Source: Actinomycetes bacterium (GTDB lineage Bacteria > Actinomycetota > Actinomycetes > JBOGEN01). Taken from it: a stretch of DNA of 64,000 nucleotides. The notes under the pieces are model-generated. The model worked only from the letters and a program-made list of their open reading frames with translations, was not told where the DNA came from and searched no databases. This document shows, piece by piece, positions 38,845 through 60,327 of the stretch (position 1 is its first letter; each line of letters opens with the position of its first letter). The position numbers were made by a program, and so were the translations under genes. The stretch is from contig JBOGEN010000107.1 of assembly GCA_050743265.1 (NCBI GenBank), positions 5,612 to 69,611 on the forward strand, in the 5' to 3' direction.

Positions 38845-39951
38845 TCAGCCGGCGTTCGGGTGGACCGAGACGTGGACGGCGGCCTCGTCTGCGACCTCGC
38901 CGCCGAGGGTCTCGACGGCCAGTGCGGTCTCGTCGAGTCCGAACGTGTGGGTGTGCATCTTCTCCAGCGGGACGCGGCGCGACTCGATGAGTGCGATCGC
39001 CTCGGCGTAGGCCGTGGCGTCCACGCCGAAGGCGCCGCGTACCGTGAGCGCGCGCTGGATCATCAGGTCGGTGCGGAGCGGTATCTCGCGCCCGCCCTTG
39101 AGACCGGCCAGCACCACGCGGCCCCCGTGGCGTACGGCGAGCATGGCGTCGCTGACCGGCTCGGCCGCCATCGGCGTCAGCTCGAGCGCGACGTCCGCCA
39201 TCGCCCCGTCGGTGACCTCCCGCACCCGGTCGACCGTGTCCTCGGCGTCGTCCCCGTCGACGACGATGCAGTGGTCGGCACCGAACTCACGAGCGAGGGC
39301 GAGCTTGTGGGCGTCGGCAGCCAGACCGGTGATGATGATCGTCCCGGCACCGGCGGCGCGTGCGGCGATCACGGCGGCGATCCCTCGCTGTCCCGACCCC
39401 AGGACCAGCACGGTCTCGCCGAGCCGAACCTCACCGAGGTGACATGCCCACCGCACGCCGGCGCCGAGCGGGTTGAACATGACCGCGAGCTCGGCGGGCA
39501 AGGTGTTGTCGATCTTGTGCAGAACCGAGGTGGGCGAGAGGTACATGTGCTCCGCCAGCCCGCCCCAGATCCCGGGTTCGGTGTCCACGCCGGTGACTCC
39601 GTGGCCGTACCTGCGGTTGCTGCAGGACTGGTAGCGGCCGGTGAGGCAGTTATGGCAGGCGCGGCACGGCACGATCACCTCGACGGCCACCCGGTCACCG
39701 GGCTGGACGCCCCAACGCGCTGCGGCGCGGTCGCCGACCTCCTCGACGATCCCCAGCGGCTCATGACCGGGGACGAAGGGGGGCTTGCCCTTCCCGAGAT
39801 GACCGCGGTAGGTCTCGACGTCGCTGCCGCAGATGCCGTTGGCCTCGACGCGTAGGAGACCGTCGTCAGGACCGGTGACGGGGCGGGTGAACTCGCGCAT
39901 CTCGATCGTCCGTGGCGCGGTCTGGACGGCGGCACGTACCAGGTCACTCAT
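38845..39951 (-). CDS. Zinc-binding MDR-family alcohol dehydrogenase
   Basis: GICGSDVETYRG…GHEPLG catalytic Zn motif. GxGxxG NAD site VLGSGQRGIAAV. Confidence 0.8.
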   Translation of the reverse strand: MSDLVRAAVQTAPRTIEMREFTRPVTGPDDGLLRVEANGICGSDVETYRGHLGKGKPPFVPGHEPLGIVEEVGDRAAARWGVQPGDRVAVEVIVPCRACHNCLTGRYQSCSNRRYGHGVTGVDTEPGIWGGLAEHMYLSPTSVLHKIDNTLPAELAVMFNPLGAGVRWACHLGEVRLGETVLVLGSGQRGIAAVIAARAAGAGTIIITGLAADAHKLALAREFGADHCIVVDGDDAEDTVDRVREVTDGAMADVALELTPMAAEPVSDAMLAVRHGGRVVLAGLKGGREIPLRTDLMIQRALTVRGAFGVDATAYAEAIALIESRRVPLEKMHTHTFGLDETALAVETLGGEVADEAAVHVSVHPNAG

Positions 39952-39962
39952 CAGGTCTCTCC

Positions 39963-40538
39963 TCAGCGCTCCAGCAGGCGGTCACATCGGTCCCCGGTCG
40001 TCAGCAGGGACACGACCTCGGGCACCAGCCGCCTCCCTCGCTCCCTGACCTCCTCGGGAGTCAGTGCTGACACCGGATGCTCGGTGACGACGTAGTCGTA
40101 GTCCGGCGCGCCACGGAGCTCGGCCATCGCGTCCGCCGTGACGACGAACTCCTCGGTGCAGATCACGGCTGCCGGCAGGCCCGCCTGCTCGAACAGGATC
40201 CCGTCGGCAACCGCCGACGCACTGCACGACTCGCAGTCACCGACACCGGTGACGACGAGGTCGCACGTCCGGCGGTACCGCTCGGCGACCTCGTCGGACA
40301 CCGGCCAGGCGAAGGCAGCCTTGCTCTGGACCAGGCTGACGGAGGCCACGCCGTGCTCGGCGACGAGCAGCGTCCCGATGGCAGCCAGCAGGAGCTCGGC
40401 GTTGCGCTTCGAGTTCCCCAGGAGTCCCACACGGGCAGCGGCGAGGTCCGGACGGCGCTGCGCGAGACCGGTCCGGTACAGCTTCTCCGGACCTGTGACG
40501 CCGGTCCATCCGGTCGGGAGGACGAACTCGTCCGGCAC
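39963..40538 (-). CDS. UGSC-family protein, Cys-containing paralogue (CESC motif), copy 1
   Basis: …DLVVTGVGDCESCSASAVADGILFEQAGLPAAVICTEEF… Paralogous to 50067..50621 and to the TGA-containing 55253..55789. Confidence 0.65.
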   Translation of the reverse strand: MPDEFVLPTGWTGVTGPEKLYRTGLAQRRPDLAAARVGLLGNSKRNAELLLAAIGTLLVAEHGVASVSLVQSKAAFAWPVSDEVAERYRRTCDLVVTGVGDCESCSASAVADGILFEQAGLPAAVICTEEFVVTADAMAELRGAPDYDYVVTEHPVSALTPEEVRERGRRLVPEVVSLLTTGDRCDRLLER

Positions 40539-48996: not shown

Positions 48997-50070
48997 TCAG
49001 GACCCTGCCGCTGACCCTGCCTGGCTGGCCTGCTGCGACGACTCGACGCGCTCCGACCGGCCCGACCATGGCGTCCAGCCGAACGGGCGGAAGACCATGG
49101 ACATGGCGGCGTTGGCCGCGCCCGCCACGAGCAGGGTGATGGCGTGGGCGGACGGCATCATCGGGAAGCGCTGCTCATCCCCGTCCGGGCTCTCCGGTAC
49201 GTGCTCGCCTTTGCCCGCGGCGACGAGATCGGCACGGCTACGCACCGACAGCTCGTGGAGCCGCTGCTGTACGTCCGCCCGGCTGTACCCGGCTGTGCCG
49301 AGGAGCTGAGCATGTTCGGGGCCCAGGACCACACCGCCACTCGAGTGCTTGCCACCCACGTAGGCACCTGACCGGGCCAGCGTGTCGGCCAGGTCGCGCA
49401 GCACCTCCTCCGGGTCCTCCGTCTGGCGATTGTCCACGAACTCGCATGTCCTGATCAGCATGGCCGAGACCGCGTCCACGCCGCGCTCGACGCCACCGAC
49501 CACGCTGAGCGGCTCCCAGGGCGAGAGCTCCTCGTTCTCGCCCAGGCAGAGGGACCAGCGACCCGGCAGGCCCTGTGTCGACTGCTCGAGCTGTTGCGGC
49601 CGTATCCGGTACGCGTTGCGCACGATCAGTCCGAGCGCACGCGCGATCGTCGCGTTGGGACGGAAGCCGGGGCCGAACACGCCCCCGGCGCAGTTGATGC
49701 CGAGCCTCGACCTGACCGGGCCGTTGACGACGAGGAGTGGGGCCGGCCCGCTCGTGGACTGCCACGCGCCACCACCGCTCGCCCGTTCCAGGCTCAGCGC
49801 GTCCCAGGCGGCGAGGACGACGGGGAAGTACTCGGGCTTGCATCCCGCCATGACCGCGTTCGCCGCCGCCTGTGCGACGGTCACGCGACGGCGGAGGTGC
49901 TCCTGGGTGCCGATGACCTCCGACGGGTCACGGGCTGTCGTGGCGAGGAACTCCTCCACGTCGGCCTCGGTGGCCGGGACGACAGGTAGCCCGTCGGTCC
50001 AGCCCTGCTCGAAGCAGTACTCGACGGCGGCCCTGGCATCTCTGACAGGGTCGCCCAGGGATGTCGTCAT
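48997..50070 (-). CDS. Conserved hypothetical protein, partner of UGSC-family protein (copy A)
   Basis: Start overlaps the stop of the UGSC gene by 4 nt. Shares GWTDGLPVVP, AGC(K/R)PEYFPVVLAAW, LLVNGP(I/V)R(S/T)RLG(I/V)N.AG and GPEHA.LL blocks with 55786..56925. Confidence 0.55.
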   Translation of the reverse strand: MTTSLGDPVRDARAAVEYCFEQGWTDGLPVVPATEADVEEFLATTARDPSEVIGTQEHLRRRVTVAQAAANAVMAGCKPEYFPVVLAAWDALSLERASGGGAWQSTSGPAPLLVVNGPVRSRLGINCAGGVFGPGFRPNATIARALGLIVRNAYRIRPQQLEQSTQGLPGRWSLCLGENEELSPWEPLSVVGGVERGVDAVSAMLIRTCEFVDNRQTEDPEEVLRDLADTLARSGAYVGGKHSSGGVVLGPEHAQLLGTAGYSRADVQQRLHELSVRSRADLVAAGKGEHVPESPDGDEQRFPMMPSAHAITLLVAGAANAAMSMVFRPFGWTPWSGRSERVESSQQASQAGSAAGS

Positions 50071-50621
50071 GGGCGCGCCGCCGCAGCCGCGTCGGTCAGC
50101 AAGGCCACGATCTGGGGCACGACCTTCTCGGCGCGTGCCCGGATGCCGTCACGGTTCAGGCTGGCCACCGGATGGTCCGTGGTGACGTACCTGTAGCCGG
50201 GTGCGCCTTGCACCTCGGCCATGGCGTCGGCGCTGACCGTGAACGCGTCGGTGCAGATGACGACGGAGGGCACTCCGGACTGTTCGAGCAGGAGACCGTC
50301 GGCGACCGCCGACGCGCTGCACGAGCCGCAGTCGCCGACGCCGGTGACCACGATGTCGCAGGCCGCGAGCTCGTCGAGCATCTCTGCCGGCACGGGGTGG
50401 GTGATGCTCAGCTTCTTCCGCGCGAGCACGGGCTTCACGCCGTACTGCTCCCGCATCAGTGAGGCCACGTCCTCGAGGAACTGCTCCGCGTTGCGCTTCG
50501 TGTTGGCCAGCAACCCGAGACTGAGCCCCTCCAGGTCTGCCGGCCGTGGAGCAAGGCCAGCCCGTGCCCGGTCCGGAGCGACATCCGAGCCCACGGTGGG
50601 GTCGACGATGCTGTCGAACAC
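50067..50621 (-). CDS. UGSC-family protein, Cys-containing paralogue (CGSC motif), copy 2
   Basis: …DIVVTGVGDCGSCSASAVADGLLLEQSGVPSVVICTDAF…. Confidence 0.65.
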   Translation of the reverse strand: MFDSIVDPTVGSDVAPDRARAGLAPRPADLEGLSLGLLANTKRNAEQFLEDVASLMREQYGVKPVLARKKLSITHPVPAEMLDELAACDIVVTGVGDCGSCSASAVADGLLLEQSGVPSVVICTDAFTVSADAMAEVQGAPGYRYVTTDHPVASLNRDGIRARAEKVVPQIVALLTDAAAAARP

Positions 50622-52251: not shown

Positions 52252-53367
52252 TCAGTCGAAGCGGATCACACCGCGGAGCGTGCGGTGCTGGCGCATGTCC
52301 TCGTAACCGTCGTTGATCTGCACCAACGAGTAGGTGCGGGTGATGAGCTCATCGAGCAGCAAGTCGCCCTGCCGGTACAGGCTGAGGAGCCGCGGGATGT
52401 CGTACCGGGGGTTCGCGTTTCCGAACAGACAGCCCACGACGCGCTTCTGGTAGGCGGTGAGCTCGAACATGGGGAGCGTCACCTGATCGTCCGACACGTT
52501 GGCGAGGGACGTCAGCGCGACGGTTCCGAGCTTGCCGACCAGCGACAGTGCCTCCCCGATGAGCTCGCCGGTGGCCACGCCGACCGTGATCAGCGCAGCG
52601 TTGGCCATCTGACCGCGGGTCAGGTCCACGAGTGCCGCGCGTGCCTCGGTGACGTCGACGAAGGCGTGGGTGGCACCGAGCTGCCTTGCCTGGTCGCGAT
52701 TGAACTCCGACGGGTCCACCACGACGATCGTCGTGGCGCCGGCCATTCTGGCTCCCTGCACCGCGTTGGCTCCGACGCCACCGACCCCGAGGACGACGAC
52801 GGTGTCACCGGCTCGCGTCTCGGCGCCGTACACCGCCGTGCCCCATCCGGTGGTGACCCCGCAACCGACCAGCGCCGCCCTGTCGAGCGGGATGTCGTCG
52901 TCGATCTTGATGACCGAGCTCTCGCGCGTGACCGTGTACGGAGAGAACGTGCCCAACACGCACATCAGCCGTGCGTCCTCGCCGCCGACGTGGTGTCGCG
53001 AACTGCCGTCACGCTGAAGCCCGACGGTCAGGTCGGCTCCTTCGTCACAGAGGTTCTGGTTCCCGGAGGCGCAGGACGGGCACCGCCCGCAGGCCGGGAC
53101 GAAGCTGAGCACCACATGGTCACCCTCGGACACGCTGCGCACGTTCGTGCCGACGCTCTCCACGACGCCGGCCCCCTCGTGACCGCCGATGACGGGCAGG
53201 CCTTCCATGGGGAGATCACCGAGCCGGACGTGCTCGTCGGAATGGCACAACCCGGAGGCGCTCAGCCGGACCATCACCTCGCCGTCACGAGGGTCGTCGA
53301 GCTCGATCTCCTCGATCTGCCAGTCCTTGCCGTACTCGCGGAGCACAGCAGCCTGAGTCCTCACCAC
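52252..53367 (-). CDS. Zn-dependent alcohol dehydrogenase (class-III-like)
   Basis: GLCHSDEH…GHEGAGVV. Confidence 0.8.
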   Translation of the reverse strand: MVRTQAAVLREYGKDWQIEEIELDDPRDGEVMVRLSASGLCHSDEHVRLGDLPMEGLPVIGGHEGAGVVESVGTNVRSVSEGDHVVLSFVPACGRCPSCASGNQNLCDEGADLTVGLQRDGSSRHHVGGEDARLMCVLGTFSPYTVTRESSVIKIDDDIPLDRAALVGCGVTTGWGTAVYGAETRAGDTVVVLGVGGVGANAVQGARMAGATTIVVVDPSEFNRDQARQLGATHAFVDVTEARAALVDLTRGQMANAALITVGVATGELIGEALSLVGKLGTVALTSLANVSDDQVTLPMFELTAYQKRVVGCLFGNANPRYDIPRLLSLYRQGDLLLDELITRTYSLVQINDGYEDMRQHRTLRGVIRFD

Positions 53368-53568: not shown

Positions 53569-55026
53569 TCACCGCCGGCGCGGCCGGGCGAACGGCAACC
53601 GCACCGTCGGGAGGAGCGCCCGCGGGCGGCGTGCCCGCACGGCGCTGACGATGACGCCGGTGCCGTACACGGCGTCCTCCGCGAGACGCAGTGCCGCATA
53701 GCGGACCGGGTCGACGTCCGGGCGATGGCGCACGTACTCCAGGGCGACGGGAGCGAGCATGCTTACGGCGGCGGCTGCTGCCACGCGGGAGCGTCCGGCA
53801 GCCGCCAGGGCCACCCATCCCACGGGCCACCACACGCGTCGCAACCCGTGACCGACCGCAGCGGCATCTGCCACGAGACCCTGTCCGACGACCACGCCCG
53901 CGAGCCAGGGGGGCGCGTCCGCCCAGCGGAGACGGCCGCCCAGCGTCCCGACCGCCGTCGCCGCGACGAGCGCAGCGAGCCGGGGTCGCGTCGGCGCCAG
54001 GAGCGCCACCGCCACGTTCCAGGCCGAGACCCGCACCGGAGCGAGGCGACCGGGGTGGCGCCGGTCCAGGTCGGCGGCGGACGTGCCGTACTCGAAGCGA
54101 CGCCGGGCCCAGTCCACCGGATCGAGCCGCGCCTCGTGGTGGACGACGACCGACGGCTCATAGCGCGCGAGCCATCCCGCGTCGGCCAGGCGCCACACCA
54201 GGTCGACGTCCTCTCCCACACGCATCGATGGCTCGAACCCCTGGCCGGCGAGTGCGTCACGACGTACGAGAAGCGCCGCCGACGGCAGGAAGCCGAGCGG
54301 TGCACCGCGTCTGACCAGTTCCGGACGCCCCCCCATGTCGAGCGCCGACCGTGCGTCCTCGTGACGTGCCAGAAGGGATACGCCTGTGACACGGGGCCGC
54401 ACGCGGGGGGCGACGAGGCCGACGCGCGGATCGTCGAAGTGCGCGACGAGTCCCTCGAGCCAGCCGGGCGAGACGGAGCAGTCGGAGTCCAGGAAGGCCA
54501 CGAGGGGCGCAGCGGTCGCCAGCACCCCGGCGTTGCGCGCCGCGCCCGGGCCCTGGTTCACGTCGAGGCGTACGACGCGAGCCCCGTGCCTCTCGGCCAC
54601 ACGCCGGACGGCCACCTCGTCGCGGGACCCGTCGTCGACGACCACCACCGGTGCGCCGGCGAGGCGACGCAGGCAGGCCTCGAGCAGGCCCACCCGGTCG
54701 TGCGCCGGGACGACGACGACCACCTCACCAGCCAGGGAGCGGAGGTCGACGGCCGGATGCACCACTCCTCGCTGCACGAGAAGGTCAGCCGTCGCGCCCT
54801 CGATGGCACCGTCGGGCACCACACCCGATGCCCCGGCAGCATGGACGCGGCGTACGAACGGCCGCGCACGCGCCGACACGCGGACGAGGCCCCACGGTGC
54901 ACCGCCGGTGACGACGGCGCCGTCGTTCCACAGCCGGGCCCGGCCGTCCCACGCGACGCGTGTCCCCGGGCGGAGGCCGGCGCGTACCTCCGGCGCGTCT
55001 ACGCCGGAGGAGGCCATGCCGGCCAA
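53569..55026 (-). CDS. mftF: Mycofactocin system glycosyltransferase MftF (GT2-like)
   Basis: About 485 aa. GT2 core VVVVDDGSRD…AFLDSDC (DxD-like), C-terminal hydrophobic region, and length/architecture typical of MftF. Lies about 26 kb from mftABCDE. Confidence 0.65.
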   Translation of the reverse strand: MAGMASSGVDAPEVRAGLRPGTRVAWDGRARLWNDGAVVTGGAPWGLVRVSARARPFVRRVHAAGASGVVPDGAIEGATADLLVQRGVVHPAVDLRSLAGEVVVVVPAHDRVGLLEACLRRLAGAPVVVVDDGSRDEVAVRRVAERHGARVVRLDVNQGPGAARNAGVLATAAPLVAFLDSDCSVSPGWLEGLVAHFDDPRVGLVAPRVRPRVTGVSLLARHEDARSALDMGGRPELVRRGAPLGFLPSAALLVRRDALAGQGFEPSMRVGEDVDLVWRLADAGWLARYEPSVVVHHEARLDPVDWARRRFEYGTSAADLDRRHPGRLAPVRVSAWNVAVALLAPTRPRLAALVAATAVGTLGGRLRWADAPPWLAGVVVGQGLVADAAAVGHGLRRVWWPVGWVALAAAGRSRVAAAAAVSMLAPVALEYVRHRPDVDPVRYAALRLAEDAVYGTGVIVSAVRARRPRALLPTVRLPFARPRRR

Positions 55027-55252
55027 CCCTAGCTGCAGGGGGCCTCGCCGCTGAGCAGCGAGCAGCCGGGTACGTCAGATGACTTACCGGGGTTGGCCGC
55101 GTGCGGCTCGCCGGGTCCGTCATCTGCGCGTGGACGTGCTCGGACCCGGTCGCGGACACTCCAGGAGACCGCGCCCGGCTCGGTGTCGTGGCTGACGACA
55201 GCTGCTCGTCGTCCACGGCGCTGAGCCCTCACCACCGGAAGGGCCCGCTGAC

Positions 55253-55789
55253 ATGGCGTTCGAGAACCTGATCGACCCCACCGGAGGCCTCGACCTCGAC
55301 GCCGACACCACCCTGACGCGCAGGCCGGCGACTCTGCGCGGCACGACGCTCGGGCTGCTGGAGAACACCAAGCCCAACGCGGCCGTCCTCCTGCACGAGC
55401 TCGGCGAGATCCTGACGCGCCGGTACGGGATCAGCGAGGTGCTCTCGTACTCCAAGACGTACTTCGGCACCCCGGCTACCGCGTCCCAGGTGGAGCTGAT
55501 AGCTCGGGAGTGCGATCTTGTGGTCACGGGGGTGGGCGATTGAGGCTCCTGCAGCGCGGCCAGTCTGGCCGACGGGATCCTGCTGGAGCGAGGCGGCGTT
55601 CCAGCGGTGAGCATCTGCACGGAGGCGTTTCGCACTCCCGCCGACGCCATGGCCAAGGCGTACGGGTTCCCGGGGTTCCAGTACGTGACGGTGCCGCACC
55701 CGCTGGCGAGTCTGACCCACGGTGAGGTGAGAGAAAGGGTGCACGAGATGCTGCCAGGCGTCCTCCAGGTCCTGGGTGTGGAGCTGTGA
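55253..55789 (+). CDS. UGSC-family selenoprotein (predicted). In-frame TGA at 55541..55543 is read as selenocysteine (motif D-U-G-S-C).
   Basis: ORFs 55253..55543 and 55607..55789 are in the same frame, separated only by the TGA. Translation …LVVTGVGD-U-GSCSAASLADGILLERGGVPAVSICTEAF… aligns residue-for-residue with the paralogues VTGVGDCGSCSASAVADGLLLEQSGVPSVVICTDAF and VTGVGDCESCSASAVADGILFEQAGLPAAVICTEEF. The TGA occupies the first Cys position. Joined length is 178 aa, against 184 and 191 aa for the paralogues. Confidence 0.6.
55544..55580 (+). other. Candidate bacterial SECIS-like hairpin downstream of the in-frame UGA
   Basis: Perfect 6-bp stem cggcca / uggccg (55557-55562 and 55566-55571) with loop GUC. 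It starts 14 nt after the UGA. Confidence 0.3.
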
Positions 55790-56925
55790 GGCATCCCTCC
55801 GCGGGTGGGACGTCGCTGGTCGAGCCGGCGGGCCTGGACCCCGTAGCGGCCCGTGACGTGCTCGAGCGCTACTACGACGAGGGCTGGACGGACGGCCTTC
55901 CCGTGGTGCCGTGCTCGGAGAGCCTGCTCGCCGAGTTCCTCGGCCAGGTCTCTCGGGACCCCGAGGACGTCGTGTTCTCCATGCCTCACCTCAACCGGAC
56001 GTGCTCGGTCCGCCTCGCCGCCGTGAACGCGGCCATGGCGGGGTGCCGGCCGGAGTACTTCCCGGTGGTCCTCGCCGCCTGGGAGGCGCTCGACGCCGAG
56101 GGCTACGCCGGCAAGGGGATCTGGCAGAGCACGACGGGCAACGCGACCCTGCTCCTCGTCAACGGTCCGATCAGGACGCGCCTGGGCGTCAACGGAGCGG
56201 GCAACGTCTTCGGGTCCGGCTTCCGTGCGAACGCCACGATCGGCCGGGCGATCCGCCTGACGGCCATGAACGTCTTCGGACTGCGTCCCCACCAGCTGGA
56301 CCAGGCGACCCAGGGGACGCCGGCGAAGTACACCTGCTGCATCGCCGAGAACGAGGAGCAGAGCCCCTGGGCACCGCTGCACGAGGAGCTCGGGTTCGCC
56401 CGGCACGAGAGCACCGTCACGGCGATGATGATGCGCTCCACCGTGCACGTGGAGGCGCGCCATACCGTCGTCGGCGACCAGCTCCTCAACGATGTGGCGA
56501 ACACGGTCGCGCGGACGGGTGCCCTCGTCCACGAGACCGTCAGCGTGTGTCTCGTCCTGGGGCCGGAGCACGCTCACCTGCTCGCCAGGGGCGGCCTGAC
56601 CCGGCGGGACGTCCAAGAGGCCGTCTTCGACAAGGCCGTGACCACGCGGCGGTCGCTCGACGCCGCCGGAAAGGCGGGGGTCTCGAGAAGCACGCGCTGG
56701 CGCCTCCCGAGCGAGCACCCCGACGCGGTCTCGGACGGTGAGGCCAACGACATCCGAGAGGCCAACGACATCCGAGAGGCCAACGACATCCGCGCGCTCA
56801 ACTCTCCCGAGGCCGTCGTCGTGGTCGTCGCGGGAGCGTTCAACGCCGGGGTCTCCACGGTCGTCGAGACCTTCGGTCCCCGCGGCGGGCGCCCCGCCAT
56901 CTCTCGAGTGAAGGAGCGACAGTGA
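55786..56925 (+). CDS. Conserved hypothetical protein, partner of UGSC-family protein (copy B)
   Basis: GTGA overlap with the selenoprotein gene. Paralogue of 48997..50070 (same conserved blocks). Contains an in-frame 18-bp x3 repeat. Confidence 0.55.
   Translation: MRHPSAGGTSLVEPAGLDPVAARDVLERYYDEGWTDGLPVVPCSESLLAEFLGQVSRDPEDVVFSMPHLNRTCSVRLAAVNAAMAGCRPEYFPVVLAAWEALDAEGYAGKGIWQSTTGNATLLLVNGPIRTRLGVNGAGNVFGSGFRANATIGRAIRLTAMNVFGLRPHQLDQATQGTPAKYTCCIAENEEQSPWAPLHEELGFARHESTVTAMMMRSTVHVEARHTVVGDQLLNDVANTVARTGALVHETVSVCLVLGPEHAHLLARGGLTRRDVQEAVFDKAVTTRRSLDAAGKAGVSRSTRWRLPSEHPDAVSDGEANDIREANDIREANDIRALNSPEAVVVVVAGAFNAGVSTVVETFGPRGGRPAISRVKERQ
56740..56793 (+). repeat. In-frame 18-bp tandem repeat x3 (gaggccaacgacatccga) encoding (EANDIR)3
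   Basis: …GEANDIREANDIREANDIRALN… in the partner protein. Absent from the paralogue 48997..50070. Confidence 0.7.
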
Positions 56926-57185
56926 CTGCCGCAGATCGACCCTCCGTTGCTCAGGACTCCTTGGACGGCGCGTTCGCGGACGTGGCGAGGACGCTGGCCG
57001 CCGACGGGTACCAGGCGGAGTGGAGGCTCAACGAGCAGGGGGCCGTGGACTTCTGGGTCACCGCCTCCGAGGAGGCGTGTGCGGAGTGCCTCGTCCCGAT
57101 GCCGGTGATGCAGGCGATCCTCGAGGGCGCCCTCGAGGGGACGGGTCGAGAGCTCGGGCGCATCGAGATGCCCGCCGAGCACTGA
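56922..57185 (+). CDS. Small hypothetical protein (87 aa) with CxxC pair
   Basis: 4-nt start overlap with the upstream gene. Contains ACAECLVPMP. Stop lies inside the first unit of a 15-bp tandem repeat. Confidence 0.4.
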   Translation: MTAADRPSVAQDSLDGAFADVARTLAADGYQAEWRLNEQGAVDFWVTASEEACAECLVPMPVMQAILEGALEGTGRELGRIEMPAEH

Positions 57186-57234
57186 GACACCGAGCACTGA
57201 GACACCGAGCGCTGAGACACCGAGCGCTGAGACC
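57175..57234 (+). repeat. Tandem direct repeat 4 x 15 bp (ccgagcRctgagaca)
   Basis: ccgagcactgagaca ccgagcactgagaca ccgagcgctgagaca ccgagcgctgagacc. Begins in the last codons of the preceding small gene and ends 35 bp before the next ATG. Each unit carries the in-frame TGA. Confidence 0.8.
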
Positions 57235-57269
57235 CCGCCCCGCCGTACCACCCCGAGAAGGGCGCACCG

Positions 57270-58619
57270 ATGTCACCGCGGGAGACCCAGATCCTCGAGC
57301 CGGCCCGGGCCACGCCCGTCCTGGGTGAGTACGACGTCGTCGTGGTCGGTGGGGGCCCGGCCGGCTTGATGGCCGCGGCCGCCGCTGCCCGCACCGGCCG
57401 CTCGACGCTGCTCCTCGAGCGGTACGGCTTCCTCGGCGGAGCCGGCACCATGGGTGGGCTGAGCACGTTCTGCGGGCTCCACGCCCGCGTACACGGCGAG
57501 CACGTCCGGGTCATCCGTGGCCTGGCCGACGAGCTCCTCGAGCGCCTGGAGCGCCTCGACGGACTCAACCCGCCGCACCTGTCCGTGCGGGACCGGATCA
57601 TGGCGCAGGCCTTCGACATCTCCGCGTACAAGATGGTGGCCGACGACCTCGTCCTCGACTCCGGCGGCGAGATCCTGTTCCACGCGACGGCAGCCGGCGT
57701 GTCGATGCGCTCGGACACCGAGATCGACGCGGTGCTCGTCGAGTCCAAGTCCGGACGTGGCGCCCTACGCGGTCGGGTGTTCGTCGACGCGTCGGGTGAC
57801 GGTGACCTGGCAGCGTGGTCCGGGGCGCCGTACGAGAAGGCGCCCCATCTGCTCTATCCCTCCCTGATGTTCCGCATCAACGGCGTGGACCCGGCCCGGG
57901 CGGGCGAGGCGTGGAAGACCGTGGCTGCGCTCATGGACGACGCCGAGCGGGCGGGGACGCACACGTTCCCGCGGAAGAAGCCGATCGTGCGGCCGCAGCG
58001 CAACCCGCTCGAGTGGCGTGCCAACCTCACGCAGCTCAGCAACGACGACGGCAGTCCCGTGGACGGCACGGACGTGTGGGGGCTGACCGACGGGGAGATC
58101 AAGGGCAGGCGGCAGGTCAGGGACGCCTTCGCGTTCATCCGGGAGCACACGCCCGGGTTCGAGGACTCGTACGTCGTGGACCTCGCCCCGCAGATCGGCA
58201 TCCGGGAGACCCGCCGCATCGTCGGCGCGTACCAGCTCTCCGAGGAGGACGTTCTCGCGTGCGCGGACTTCCCCGACACGATCGGCGTGAACGGATGGCC
58301 GGTCGAGGCGCACGTGGCCGGTGACGTCGAGTTCCGCTTCGCCCGGGACGAGCACCCCCGGGGCTTCAACCAGCTCCCGTTCCGCATGCTGCTCCCCCAG
58401 GGCGTCGACAACCTCTACGTCACCGGCCGCTGCGCCTCGATGACCCAGCGGGGACAGTCCGCGGCCCGGGTCACCGGCCCGTGCTACGCGATGGGTCAGG
58501 CGGCCGGGGTCGCGTCCGACCTCGCGTTGTCCGCGGGCGTCGCCTGCCGGGACGTCGACGTCGCAGTCCTGCAGAAGCGTCTCGTCGAGGACGGGGCGTA
58601 CCTGGGCACGGACCTGTGA
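57270..58619 (+). CDS. FAD-dependent oxidoreductase
   Basis: N-terminal dinucleotide-binding motif VVVVGGGPAGLMAAAAAAR. Confidence 0.8.
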   Translation: MSPRETQILEPARATPVLGEYDVVVVGGGPAGLMAAAAAARTGRSTLLLERYGFLGGAGTMGGLSTFCGLHARVHGEHVRVIRGLADELLERLERLDGLNPPHLSVRDRIMAQAFDISAYKMVADDLVLDSGGEILFHATAAGVSMRSDTEIDAVLVESKSGRGALRGRVFVDASGDGDLAAWSGAPYEKAPHLLYPSLMFRINGVDPARAGEAWKTVAALMDDAERAGTHTFPRKKPIVRPQRNPLEWRANLTQLSNDDGSPVDGTDVWGLTDGEIKGRRQVRDAFAFIREHTPGFEDSYVVDLAPQIGIRETRRIVGAYQLSEEDVLACADFPDTIGVNGWPVEAHVAGDVEFRFARDEHPRGFNQLPFRMLLPQGVDNLYVTGRCASMTQRGQSAARVTGPCYAMGQAAGVASDLALSAGVACRDVDVAVLQKRLVEDGAYLGTDL

Positions 58620-58653: not shown

Positions 58654-60327
58654 ATGACCCGCACCCTTCGGAGCAACTTCGATCCCGGGACGACGCGGTG
58701 GGCGATGCGCCGGGCCCAGTGGCGACGTCTGGGCATCTCCGCCGAGGACGAGGTCAAGCCGAAGATCGCGATCGTCAACAGCTCGTCGGACCTGGCCAGC
58801 TGCTACAGCCACCTGGACGGGATCGTCGGACCTCTGAAGGAGGCGATCAGGTCTGCCGGGGGAGTGCCCTTCGAGGTGCGCACGGCCGCACCCAGCGACG
58901 CCGTCACCAGTGCGGGGTGCGCCGGCCGGTACATCCTCCCGAGCCGCGACCTCATCGTGAACGACATCGAGGTCGCCGTCGAGGGCGCGCTGCTCGACGG
59001 CATGGTCGCGCTGGCGTCCTGCGACAAGACGACGCCCGCACACCTCATGGCGGCCGCACGTCTCGACATCCCGACGATCGTGGTCGCCTGTGGCTACCAG
59101 GCCAGCGGCCGGTACCGCGGCGAGCCCATCGACTTCGAGGACGTCTTCCTGCTGGCCGGGCACGTCGCCGCCGGGCGTCTCACGGCCGAGGAGCTCGGCG
59201 AGATGAGCGAGTGCGCGATCGAGGGTCCCGGCGTGTGCTCGGGGATGGGGACGGCCAACTCCATGCACATCGCGGCCGAGGCCCTCGGGATGGCGATGGC
59301 GGGCAGCACGCCCGTCCGCGCGAACGGTGACCGGATGTGGCAGGCGGTCCGCCAGGCCGGGGAACGCATCGTCGCCCTCGTGCACGAGGGCCATCGCCCG
59401 CGGGACGTCCTCACCCCCGGGGCGTTCCGGAACGCGGTGACCGCGATCCTCGCCGTGAGCGGCTCCATCAACACCCTCAAGCACCTTCAGGCGGTTGCTG
59501 TGGAAGCCGCGTGCGACGTGGACATCTGGCGGCTCTTCGAGGAGCTCGCCGCGGACGTACCCCTGCTCACCGGCGTGAAGCCCAACGGGGACCGTCGCAT
59601 CGAGCAGTTCGACGACGCCGGCGGGACGCGTGCCCTGCTCAACCAGCTCGAGCCCCTGCTCGATCTCGAGGCGTCCACGGTGACCGGCCCGCGGCTGGGG
59701 GAGCTGCTGGCAGACGCCGAGGTCGCCGACGAGGACACCATCCGGTCGCTGGACCGTCCGCTGGCTCGCCACCCCGCGATCGTCGTGGTCCGTGGCTCGC
59801 TCGCCCCGGACGGCGCGATCGTCAAGCGGACCGTGGCGGACGAGGCACCCCGGCGGTTCCGTGGACCGGCGCGGGTCTTCCGCTCCCGGGACGAGGGGCT
59901 GGCCGCCGTGAAGGCAGGAGGGGTCGAGCCGGGCGACGTCGTGGTGCTGAGCGGGCTGGGCCCACGCGGGTCACCCGGCATGGCCTTGACGTCCGCCTTC
60001 ATCTTCGCCCTCGACGGAGCCGGCCTGGGGGGCGACGTGGCCGTCGTGACGGACGGTCAGATGTCCGGCCTTGTCAACCGGGGGCTCGTGGTCGGGGAGG
60101 TGACCCCCGAGGCGGCTGCGGGGGGTCCGCTCGGCCTCGTGGAGGACGGCGATCTCGTCTCCGTCGACGTCGACGCGCGCACCCTCGATCTCCTCGTGGA
60201 CGACGACGCGCTCGACGCGCGACGGTCGCGCCTGCCTCAGGCTCCCCCCGTCGTCGGCTGCAGCTGGCTGTCGGTGTACGCCCGCGAGGTCGGCTCCGTG
60301 GCCGCCGGCGCCACCCTCGGTGGTTGA
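58654..60327 (+). CDS. IlvD/EDD-family dehydratase (dihydroxy-acid / sugar-acid dehydratase)
   Basis: Fe-S ligand motifs CDKTTP and GPGVCSGMGTANSM; C-terminal SGLVNRG-like region. Confidence 0.85.
   Translation: MTRTLRSNFDPGTTRWAMRRAQWRRLGISAEDEVKPKIAIVNSSSDLASCYSHLDGIVGPLKEAIRSAGGVPFEVRTAAPSDAVTSAGCAGRYILPSRDLIVNDIEVAVEGALLDGMVALASCDKTTPAHLMAAARLDIPTIVVACGYQASGRYRGEPIDFEDVFLLAGHVAAGRLTAEELGEMSECAIEGPGVCSGMGTANSMHIAAEALGMAMAGSTPVRANGDRMWQAVRQAGERIVALVHEGHRPRDVLTPGAFRNAVTAILAVSGSINTLKHLQAVAVEAACDVDIWRLFEELAADVPLLTGVKPNGDRRIEQFDDAGGTRALLNQLEPLLDLEASTVTGPRLGELLADAEVADEDTIRSLDRPLARHPAIVVVRGSLAPDGAIVKRTVADEAPRRFRGPARVFRSRDEGLAAVKAGGVEPGDVVVLSGLGPRGSPGMALTSAFIFALDGAGLGGDVAVVTDGQMSGLVNRGLVVGEVTPEAAAGGPLGLVEDGDLVSVDVDARTLDLLVDDDALDARRSRLPQAPPVVGCSWLSVYAREVGSVAAGATLGG

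Follow-up and report, generated by a model that had tools for sequence, protein, structure and literature searches.

A 64,000-nucleotide stretch of actinomycete DNA (hereafter the window) contains two short open reading frames (ORFs) that share a frame and are separated by a single TGA, which raises the question of whether they are a broken gene or one selenoprotein gene whose UGA is read as selenocysteine (Sec). A preliminary description of the locus had proposed a genuine selenoprotein rather than a pseudogene, with a joined length like that of two paralogues in the window. Translation from the ATG at 55253 to the TGA at 55787-55789 indeed gives a single 178-codon frame, to be compared with 184 and 191 aa in the paralogues, and the TGA at 55541-55543 is its sole internal stop (Table 1). 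No other stop and no frameshift was found within 55253..55789, which supports the view that the gene is not a pseudogene. Across the TGA the frame reads VVTGVGD, stop, GSCSAASLADGILLERGGVPAVSICTE, and the surroundings of Sec97 in the joined product are VGD-U-GSCSAASLADGILLER; the segment VGD-U-GSCSA contains the [U/C]-G-S-C motif of the family, placed in a conserved column after V-G-D. Within a 65-sequence alignment (A3), G95, D96, C97, and C100 were invariant, and Cys100 is likely the resolving cysteine of the UxxC motif. The in-frame GC3 was 0.92 before the TGA and 0.85 after it. The window has a G+C content of 70% and TGA is its usual stop, terminating 27 of the 30 genes, and UGA is thus not generally reassigned in the source genome. 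When the whole window was searched for internal TGAs with at least 50 coding-like codons on each side within one gene, only 55541-55543 remained, the other two matches being ordinary gene ends.

Table 1. Positions in the window of the UGSC gene, its sequence elements, the genes following it, and its paralogues
Feature	Position	Strand	Remarks
Probable UGSC-family selenoprotein gene	55253..55789	+	178 codons; Sec = codon 97, Cys = codon 100
Shine-Dalgarno-like GGAAGGG	55237..55243	+	9 nt 5' of ATG; proposed from reading the sequence
UGA codon 97	55541..55543	+	first residue of U-G-S-C motif; aligned with Cys in both paralogues
TGC codon, Cys100	55550..55552	+	invariant in alignment A3
SECIS-like core hairpin	55557..55571	+	stem 55557-55562/55566-55571; loop GUC 55563-55565 = G23, U24, C25
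Partner gene, 379 aa	55786..56925	+	GTG start overlaps UGSC stop (GTGA, 55786-55789); conserved, unannotated
Small 87-aa protein, C-A-E-C motif	56922..57185	+	overlaps the partner's stop
FAD-dependent oxidoreductase (PF12831)	57270..58619	+	next operon gene; 85% identical to L064 counterpart
IlvD/Edd-family dehydratase	58654..60327	+	last gene of conserved block; same order in P. soyae L201
Cys paralogue B (CGSC), UGSC family	50067..50621	-	profile matches and alignment
Partner paralogue of Cys copy B	48997..50070	-	46% identical to partner 55786..56925
Cys paralogue A (CESC), UGSC family	39963..40538	-	profile matches and alignment; no adjoining partner gene

We scored the joined product against family profiles with Cys put in place of the internal stop. 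It matched the NCBIfam profile NF041046, "UGSC family (seleno)protein" (164.5 bits, cutoff 125, profile positions 2-146 of 147), and Pfam PF24696 (210.8 bits, cutoff 25, profile positions 2-171 of 172), and the UGSC-type family named in the preliminary description is thus a curated one, matched over its full length. At least as early as 2008, publications counted the UGSC-containing protein among the major selenoprotein families of prokaryotes, with a UxxC motif and no assigned function (PMC2398784); a 2016 genome survey counted 33 UGSC genes in 26 organisms (PMC5029168), and a 2026 review ties the family to NF041046 (PMC13188914). As the family is documented in the selenoproteome literature, the kind of gene is already known, and 55253..55789 is an ordinary member of it. 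The proposal that the TGA replaces the first Cys of a C-x-S-C motif present in two paralogues was borne out by alignment: in both, the TGA column corresponds to the first Cys of GD-C-[GE]-S-C-S-A, with no gaps around the motif and with identities to the joined product of 47% (50067..50621) and 44% (39963..40538). The coordinates given earlier for the paralogues were correct, and the minus strand on which both lie is an addition to the preliminary description.

To map the Sec form more widely, we scanned 185,579 species genomes with a pattern encoding G-D-TGA-G-S-C-S-A...D-G. At least 120 loci matched, and each of the 120 listed is a UGSC gene whose frame has TGA in the Sec column and runs on for about 80 codons; as the pattern specified TGA, these numbers describe the spread of the Sec form and not its share. 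The listed loci come from Dehalococcoidia, Acidobacteriota, Dormibacterota, Burkholderiales, and many Actinomycetota, among them Streptosporangiaceae, Micromonosporaceae, Solirubrobacterales, Plantactinospora, Actinophytocola, and Trebonia. For metagenome contigs, a protein-based scan with two patterns independent of the Cys codon gave 76 relatives that could be scored (identity about 50-64%); 52 of them had TGA and 24 had TGC at the Sec column. Sec is therefore the majority form (52/76) among related actinobacterial and soil sequences and not a rarity; the GOS metagenomes contained 255 Sec and 21 Cys forms (PMC2398784). The predicted alternation of Sec and Cys at this column in homologues from other genomes was thereby confirmed in more than 170 genes. 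In a neighbour-joining tree computed after masking of the motif region, the Cys forms are nested within the Sec forms; the root state is Sec, and about three changes of state are needed. Two distinct UGSC genes with Sec occur together in several genomes (L064 and L092, L017 and L059, L041 and L078, L110 and L114, L095 and L112), cultured Plantactinospora solaniradicis being one of them, and another (L056) has a Sec copy together with a Cys copy.

A 6-bp hairpin with a GUC loop, starting 14 nt after the UGA, had been pointed out as a possible SECIS. Folding recovered it at 55557-55571 as CGGCCA / GUC / UGGCCG: counting the U of UGA as 1, C17-A22 form the 5' arm of the stem and U26-G31 its 3' arm, and 13 nt lie between the UGA and the stem, so that the 14th is the hairpin's first base. 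Taken by itself the hairpin is not energetically exceptional (z-score -0.3 in a 76-nt context; -2.4 for the 50-nt fold from the UGA), and the case for a SECIS thus rests on comparative data. To assess pairing, we aligned 118 Sec forms (99 of them distinct) without gaps. Across the 99 distinct sequences 98.5% of the cells were paired, compared with 15-55% when the 3' arm was slid by 1-3 nt. Changes on both sides were seen in four of the five unconstrained pairs, 18-30 (GC/CG/AU), 19-29 (UA/GC), 20-28 (GC/CG), and 21-27 (CG/GC); pair 17-31, being fixed by the search pattern, carries no weight. These compensatory changes agree with the earlier expectation of a conserved structure 3' of the UGA in orthologues. 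G23 and U24 are nearly invariant (alignment A2), and the loop varies as GUC, GUU, or GUG across the Sec forms. The Ser codon that supplies A22-G23-U24 is AGU in every case, a codon seldom used in these G+C-rich genomes.

Comparison with Cys forms points in the same direction. In the clade of the window gene, Cys forms read AATVA where Sec forms read AAS[L/V]A, and they have a CCG loop in which the GU is lost; as the Sec/Cys state changed only about three times on the tree, the 95-to-0 association of Sec with the loop GU represents few independent events and was given less weight. Two pairs that include synonymous third positions, 18-30 and 21-27, are kept in 9 of 20 distinct Cys forms and in 76/76 and 57/57 distinct Sec forms, the stem being fully paired in all of the latter sequences. 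This decay reads as an RNA constraint relaxed after the replacement of Sec by Cys. A search against Rfam returned no SECIS family, either at the gathering score or at E <= 10. Bacterial SECIS elements are thinly represented in Rfam. Possible extensions of the lower stem, 5-9/45-49 and 11-14/40-43, pair as well in Cys forms and were rejected as parts of the SECIS. A Solirubrobacterales-type clade has the hairpin moved by 2 nt and a GGUC loop, formed in its Sec forms by GCG UCG GCG GUC GCC GAC. Exactly this sequence follows the TGC of paralogue B (50297-50330, minus strand), that of paralogue A (40200-40235, minus strand) is one base off, and both Cys paralogues fall within this Sec clade in the tree. 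It may be a fossil SECIS left after Sec-to-Cys replacement or may merely reflect preferred codons.

The surroundings of the gene are conserved as well. The order UGSC, partner, small protein, FAD oxidoreductase, and IlvD/Edd is shared with P. solaniradicis (L064) and P. soyae (L201), and the amino-acid identities to the L064 proteins are 69% for UGSC, 73% for the partner, 61% for the small protein, and 85% for the FAD oxidoreductase. Both syntenic UGSC genes have TGA at the same codon, and for P. soyae, whose genome is complete, the public record already gives a 178-aa product spanning it. Orthologues in these Plantactinospora operons thus keep the TGA, whereas a sense codon other than Cys/Sec would have spoken against the earlier proposal. 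Compared with the P. soyae orthologue, the N-terminal part is 64% identical and the part after the UGA 77%, and the codon differences after the UGA comprise 24 synonymous and 19 nonsynonymous ones. The 87-aa small protein, for which a family search gave no match, also follows the partner at L064, L030, L017, L048, L082, and L201. A 15-bp tandem repeat (57175-57237, plus strand; 4.2 copies, 95% matches) runs from the end of its gene into the spacer that precedes the gene for the FAD oxidoreductase.

Our search for the decoding machinery covered the window and the listed loci. No tRNA gene lies in the window, a search with ARAGORN detected tRNA-Sec neither there nor in the listed loci, and tblastn of the window and the 120 loci with approximate E. 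coli SelA, SelB, and SelD queries matched only CysN, as confirmed by a family scan. Published data list SelD, SelA, and SelB for 5/5 Micromonospora, 4/4 Actinoplanes, and 1/3 Salinispora (PMC5029168 Table S1), and the prior for Sec machinery is accordingly favourable, not decisive; the supplement of a tRNA-Sec survey has no entries for Micromonosporaceae genera (PMC5330540). The lack of machinery in the window and the patchiness of the Sec trait in Actinobacteria, as in Salinispora, would fit a gene of Sec lineage whose decoding machinery has been lost, the UGA now terminating translation to leave a 96-aa fragment of a young pseudogene, all the more as two Cys paralogues in the genome could substitute for it. 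We consider this improbable. The gene has no second lesion, close relatives retain one or two Sec copies, and the perfect SECIS, the better conserved post-UGA half, and the intact coupling to the partner argue against such a loss, as none of them would last long without read-through.

A recent nonsense mutation of a Cys-type UGSC gene would take one base change, from TGC to TGA, and both paralogues have Cys at this column. The window gene, however, carries exactly the signature GCG GCC AGU CUG GCC, found in 95/95 Sec forms and 0/22 Cys forms of its clade, and in the motif-masked tree it clusters with the TGA-bearing syntenic orthologues, so that a pseudogene of this origin seems very improbable. 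Even less credit is due to the idea of two small genes, 55253..55543 and 55607..55789, or of a sequencing error creating the TGA. The ORF caller does give two ORFs, but the alignment to the family profile is continuous across the TGA, the predicted fold draws strands from both halves, and the second ORF, with its GTG start at 55607, would lack the 21 conserved residues that follow the TGA; the same TGA is found in more than 170 independent assemblies.

Family membership, Sec/Cys alternation, TGA in syntenic genes, and the covarying hairpin thus support the selenoprotein reading of the preliminary description, and 55253..55789 is very probably one intact UGSC gene in which UGA 97 is read as Sec. 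The cis elements and their conservation are observed, as is the synteny, and we infer the action of the trans-acting machinery and a redox role of the product. A SelB-GTP-Sec-tRNA(Sec) complex would bind the hairpin with its loop G23-U24 during translation and cause codon 97 to be decoded as selenocysteine, after which the ribosome would go on for 81 codons to the true stop. As this stop overlaps the start of the partner, translation of the partner would be coupled to that of UGSC through the overlap.

The GTGA overlap at 55786-55789, on which the earlier claim of translational coupling was based, is real. Association of the UGSC genes with a partner, as described earlier, holds for 55253..55789 and for 50067..50621 (partner 48997..50070) and does not hold for 39963..40538: downstream of the latter is a Zn-dependent alcohol dehydrogenase gene (38845-39951, minus strand), and paralogue A is an orphan UGSC copy. 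The partner is present at 94 of the 120 listed UGSC loci and, among the listed loci, is fused in frame to UGSC in four other genomes from three phyla, which makes a firm Rosetta-stone link between the two families; the literature describes UGSC beside, or fused with, an unknown domain, "Unknown_1" (Zhang & Gladyshev 2008, PMC2398784). The partner family is large, with at least 7,747 matches at E <= 1e-10 among the 8,000 candidates scored; the best homologue has 75% identity and that of Plantactinospora 74%. Three cysteines are conserved in the family. Sequence searches found no Pfam, NCBIfam, or PDB relative of the partner, and its fold search matches were weak. Some UniRef entries of the family are named "Thioredoxin", for which the fold gives no support. 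Within the partner gene, a perfect 18-bp tandem repeat (56740-56792, plus strand; 2.9 copies) adds (EANDIR)x3 to a low-confidence loop at residues 320-328 and is absent from the partner paralogue of copy B. Immediately before the UGSC operon, on the opposite strand, lies a gene for the mycofactocin glycosyltransferase MftF (53569-55026, minus strand; TIGR03965, 362 bits), adjoined by one for an NDMA-dependent alcohol dehydrogenase (52252-53367, minus strand; TIGR03989, 548 bits), and the region 38-53 kb of the window is dense in Zn-ADH, SDR, and aldehyde dehydrogenase genes.

The AlphaFold (AF2) model of the UGSC protein (pLDDT 89) forms one alpha/beta domain with strands from both sides of Sec, and its fold is predicted to be flavodoxin/Rossmann-like. 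A fold search with the model gave generic matches only, and a sequence search of the PDB found no relative of the protein. The thioredoxin-like fold suggested for UGSC in 2008 (PMC2398784) was considered and rejected on the basis of the predicted-structure search. In the model, Sec97-Gly-Ser-Cys100 would be placed at a helix N-terminus following the domain's third strand, and Sec97 and Cys100 most likely cycle between selenolate/thiol and selenenylsulfide. UGSC could then be the redox-active subunit of a two-part enzyme with the partner protein as the other part, and the neighbouring FAD oxidoreductase and the small CxxC protein would be plausible electron donors. That UGSC and partner together form a widespread two-component Se-dependent redox enzyme of a new structural type, not thioredoxin-like, is a possibility that we put forward tentatively.

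The two ORFs should be annotated as a single CDS that contains Sec and not as a pseudogene, as NCBI has already done for the P. soyae orthologue. The window gene adds no new kind of system: UGSC is among the more abundant selenoprotein families of aquatic metagenomes, and it was also common among the actinobacterial genomes and soil metagenome contigs that we sampled. Our additions are a SECIS consensus with covariation at synonymous sites, evidence for a non-thioredoxin fold, and the Rosetta-stone link to the partner family, and the remaining interest lies in the function of the UGSC-partner pair. If the idea of a two-component enzyme is true, one Sec version and two derived Cys versions near mycofactocin-linked dehydrogenases would make a test bed for the benefit of Sec.

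Among known redox systems, GrdB and PrdB, the selenoprotein B of glycine and D-proline reductase, resemble the UGSC pair in combining a UxxC selenoprotein subunit with a separate or fused substrate-handling subunit, a likeness that is analogy and not membership. The UGSC partner, unlike that of GrdB/PrdB, is unrelated to PrdA/GrdE as far as tested, and UGSC itself was rejected as a GrdB/PrdB relative at the sequence level, as 0/65 alignment members matched GRDB (PF07355) at E <= 10. Paralogue B gave the sole sub-threshold match: over the motif it aligned with PrdB (TIGR04483) at E = 0.0056 and 16 bits, the cutoff being 300. The SECIS of E. coli fdhF is a SelB-binding hairpin with G23 and U24 in its apical GGUC loop and a bulged U17. 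Like it, the window hairpin follows the UGA directly within the coding region, has a stem kept by compensatory changes, and presents G23 and U24 in a loop equally far from the UGA. It differs in having a loop of 3 nt (GUC/GUU/GUG) and not GGUC, and in having no bulged U17, C17 pairing with G31 in all 99 distinct sequences. With the UGSC family as described in 2008 (PMC2398784), the window gene shares the motif, the Sec column, the coexistence of Sec and Cys forms, and the adjacent or fused unknown domain, and it is not essentially different, although its predicted fold is flavodoxin/Rossmann-like and the one suggested then was thioredoxin-like; the window copy sits in an actinomycete operon with an FAD oxidoreductase and an IlvD/Edd dehydratase.
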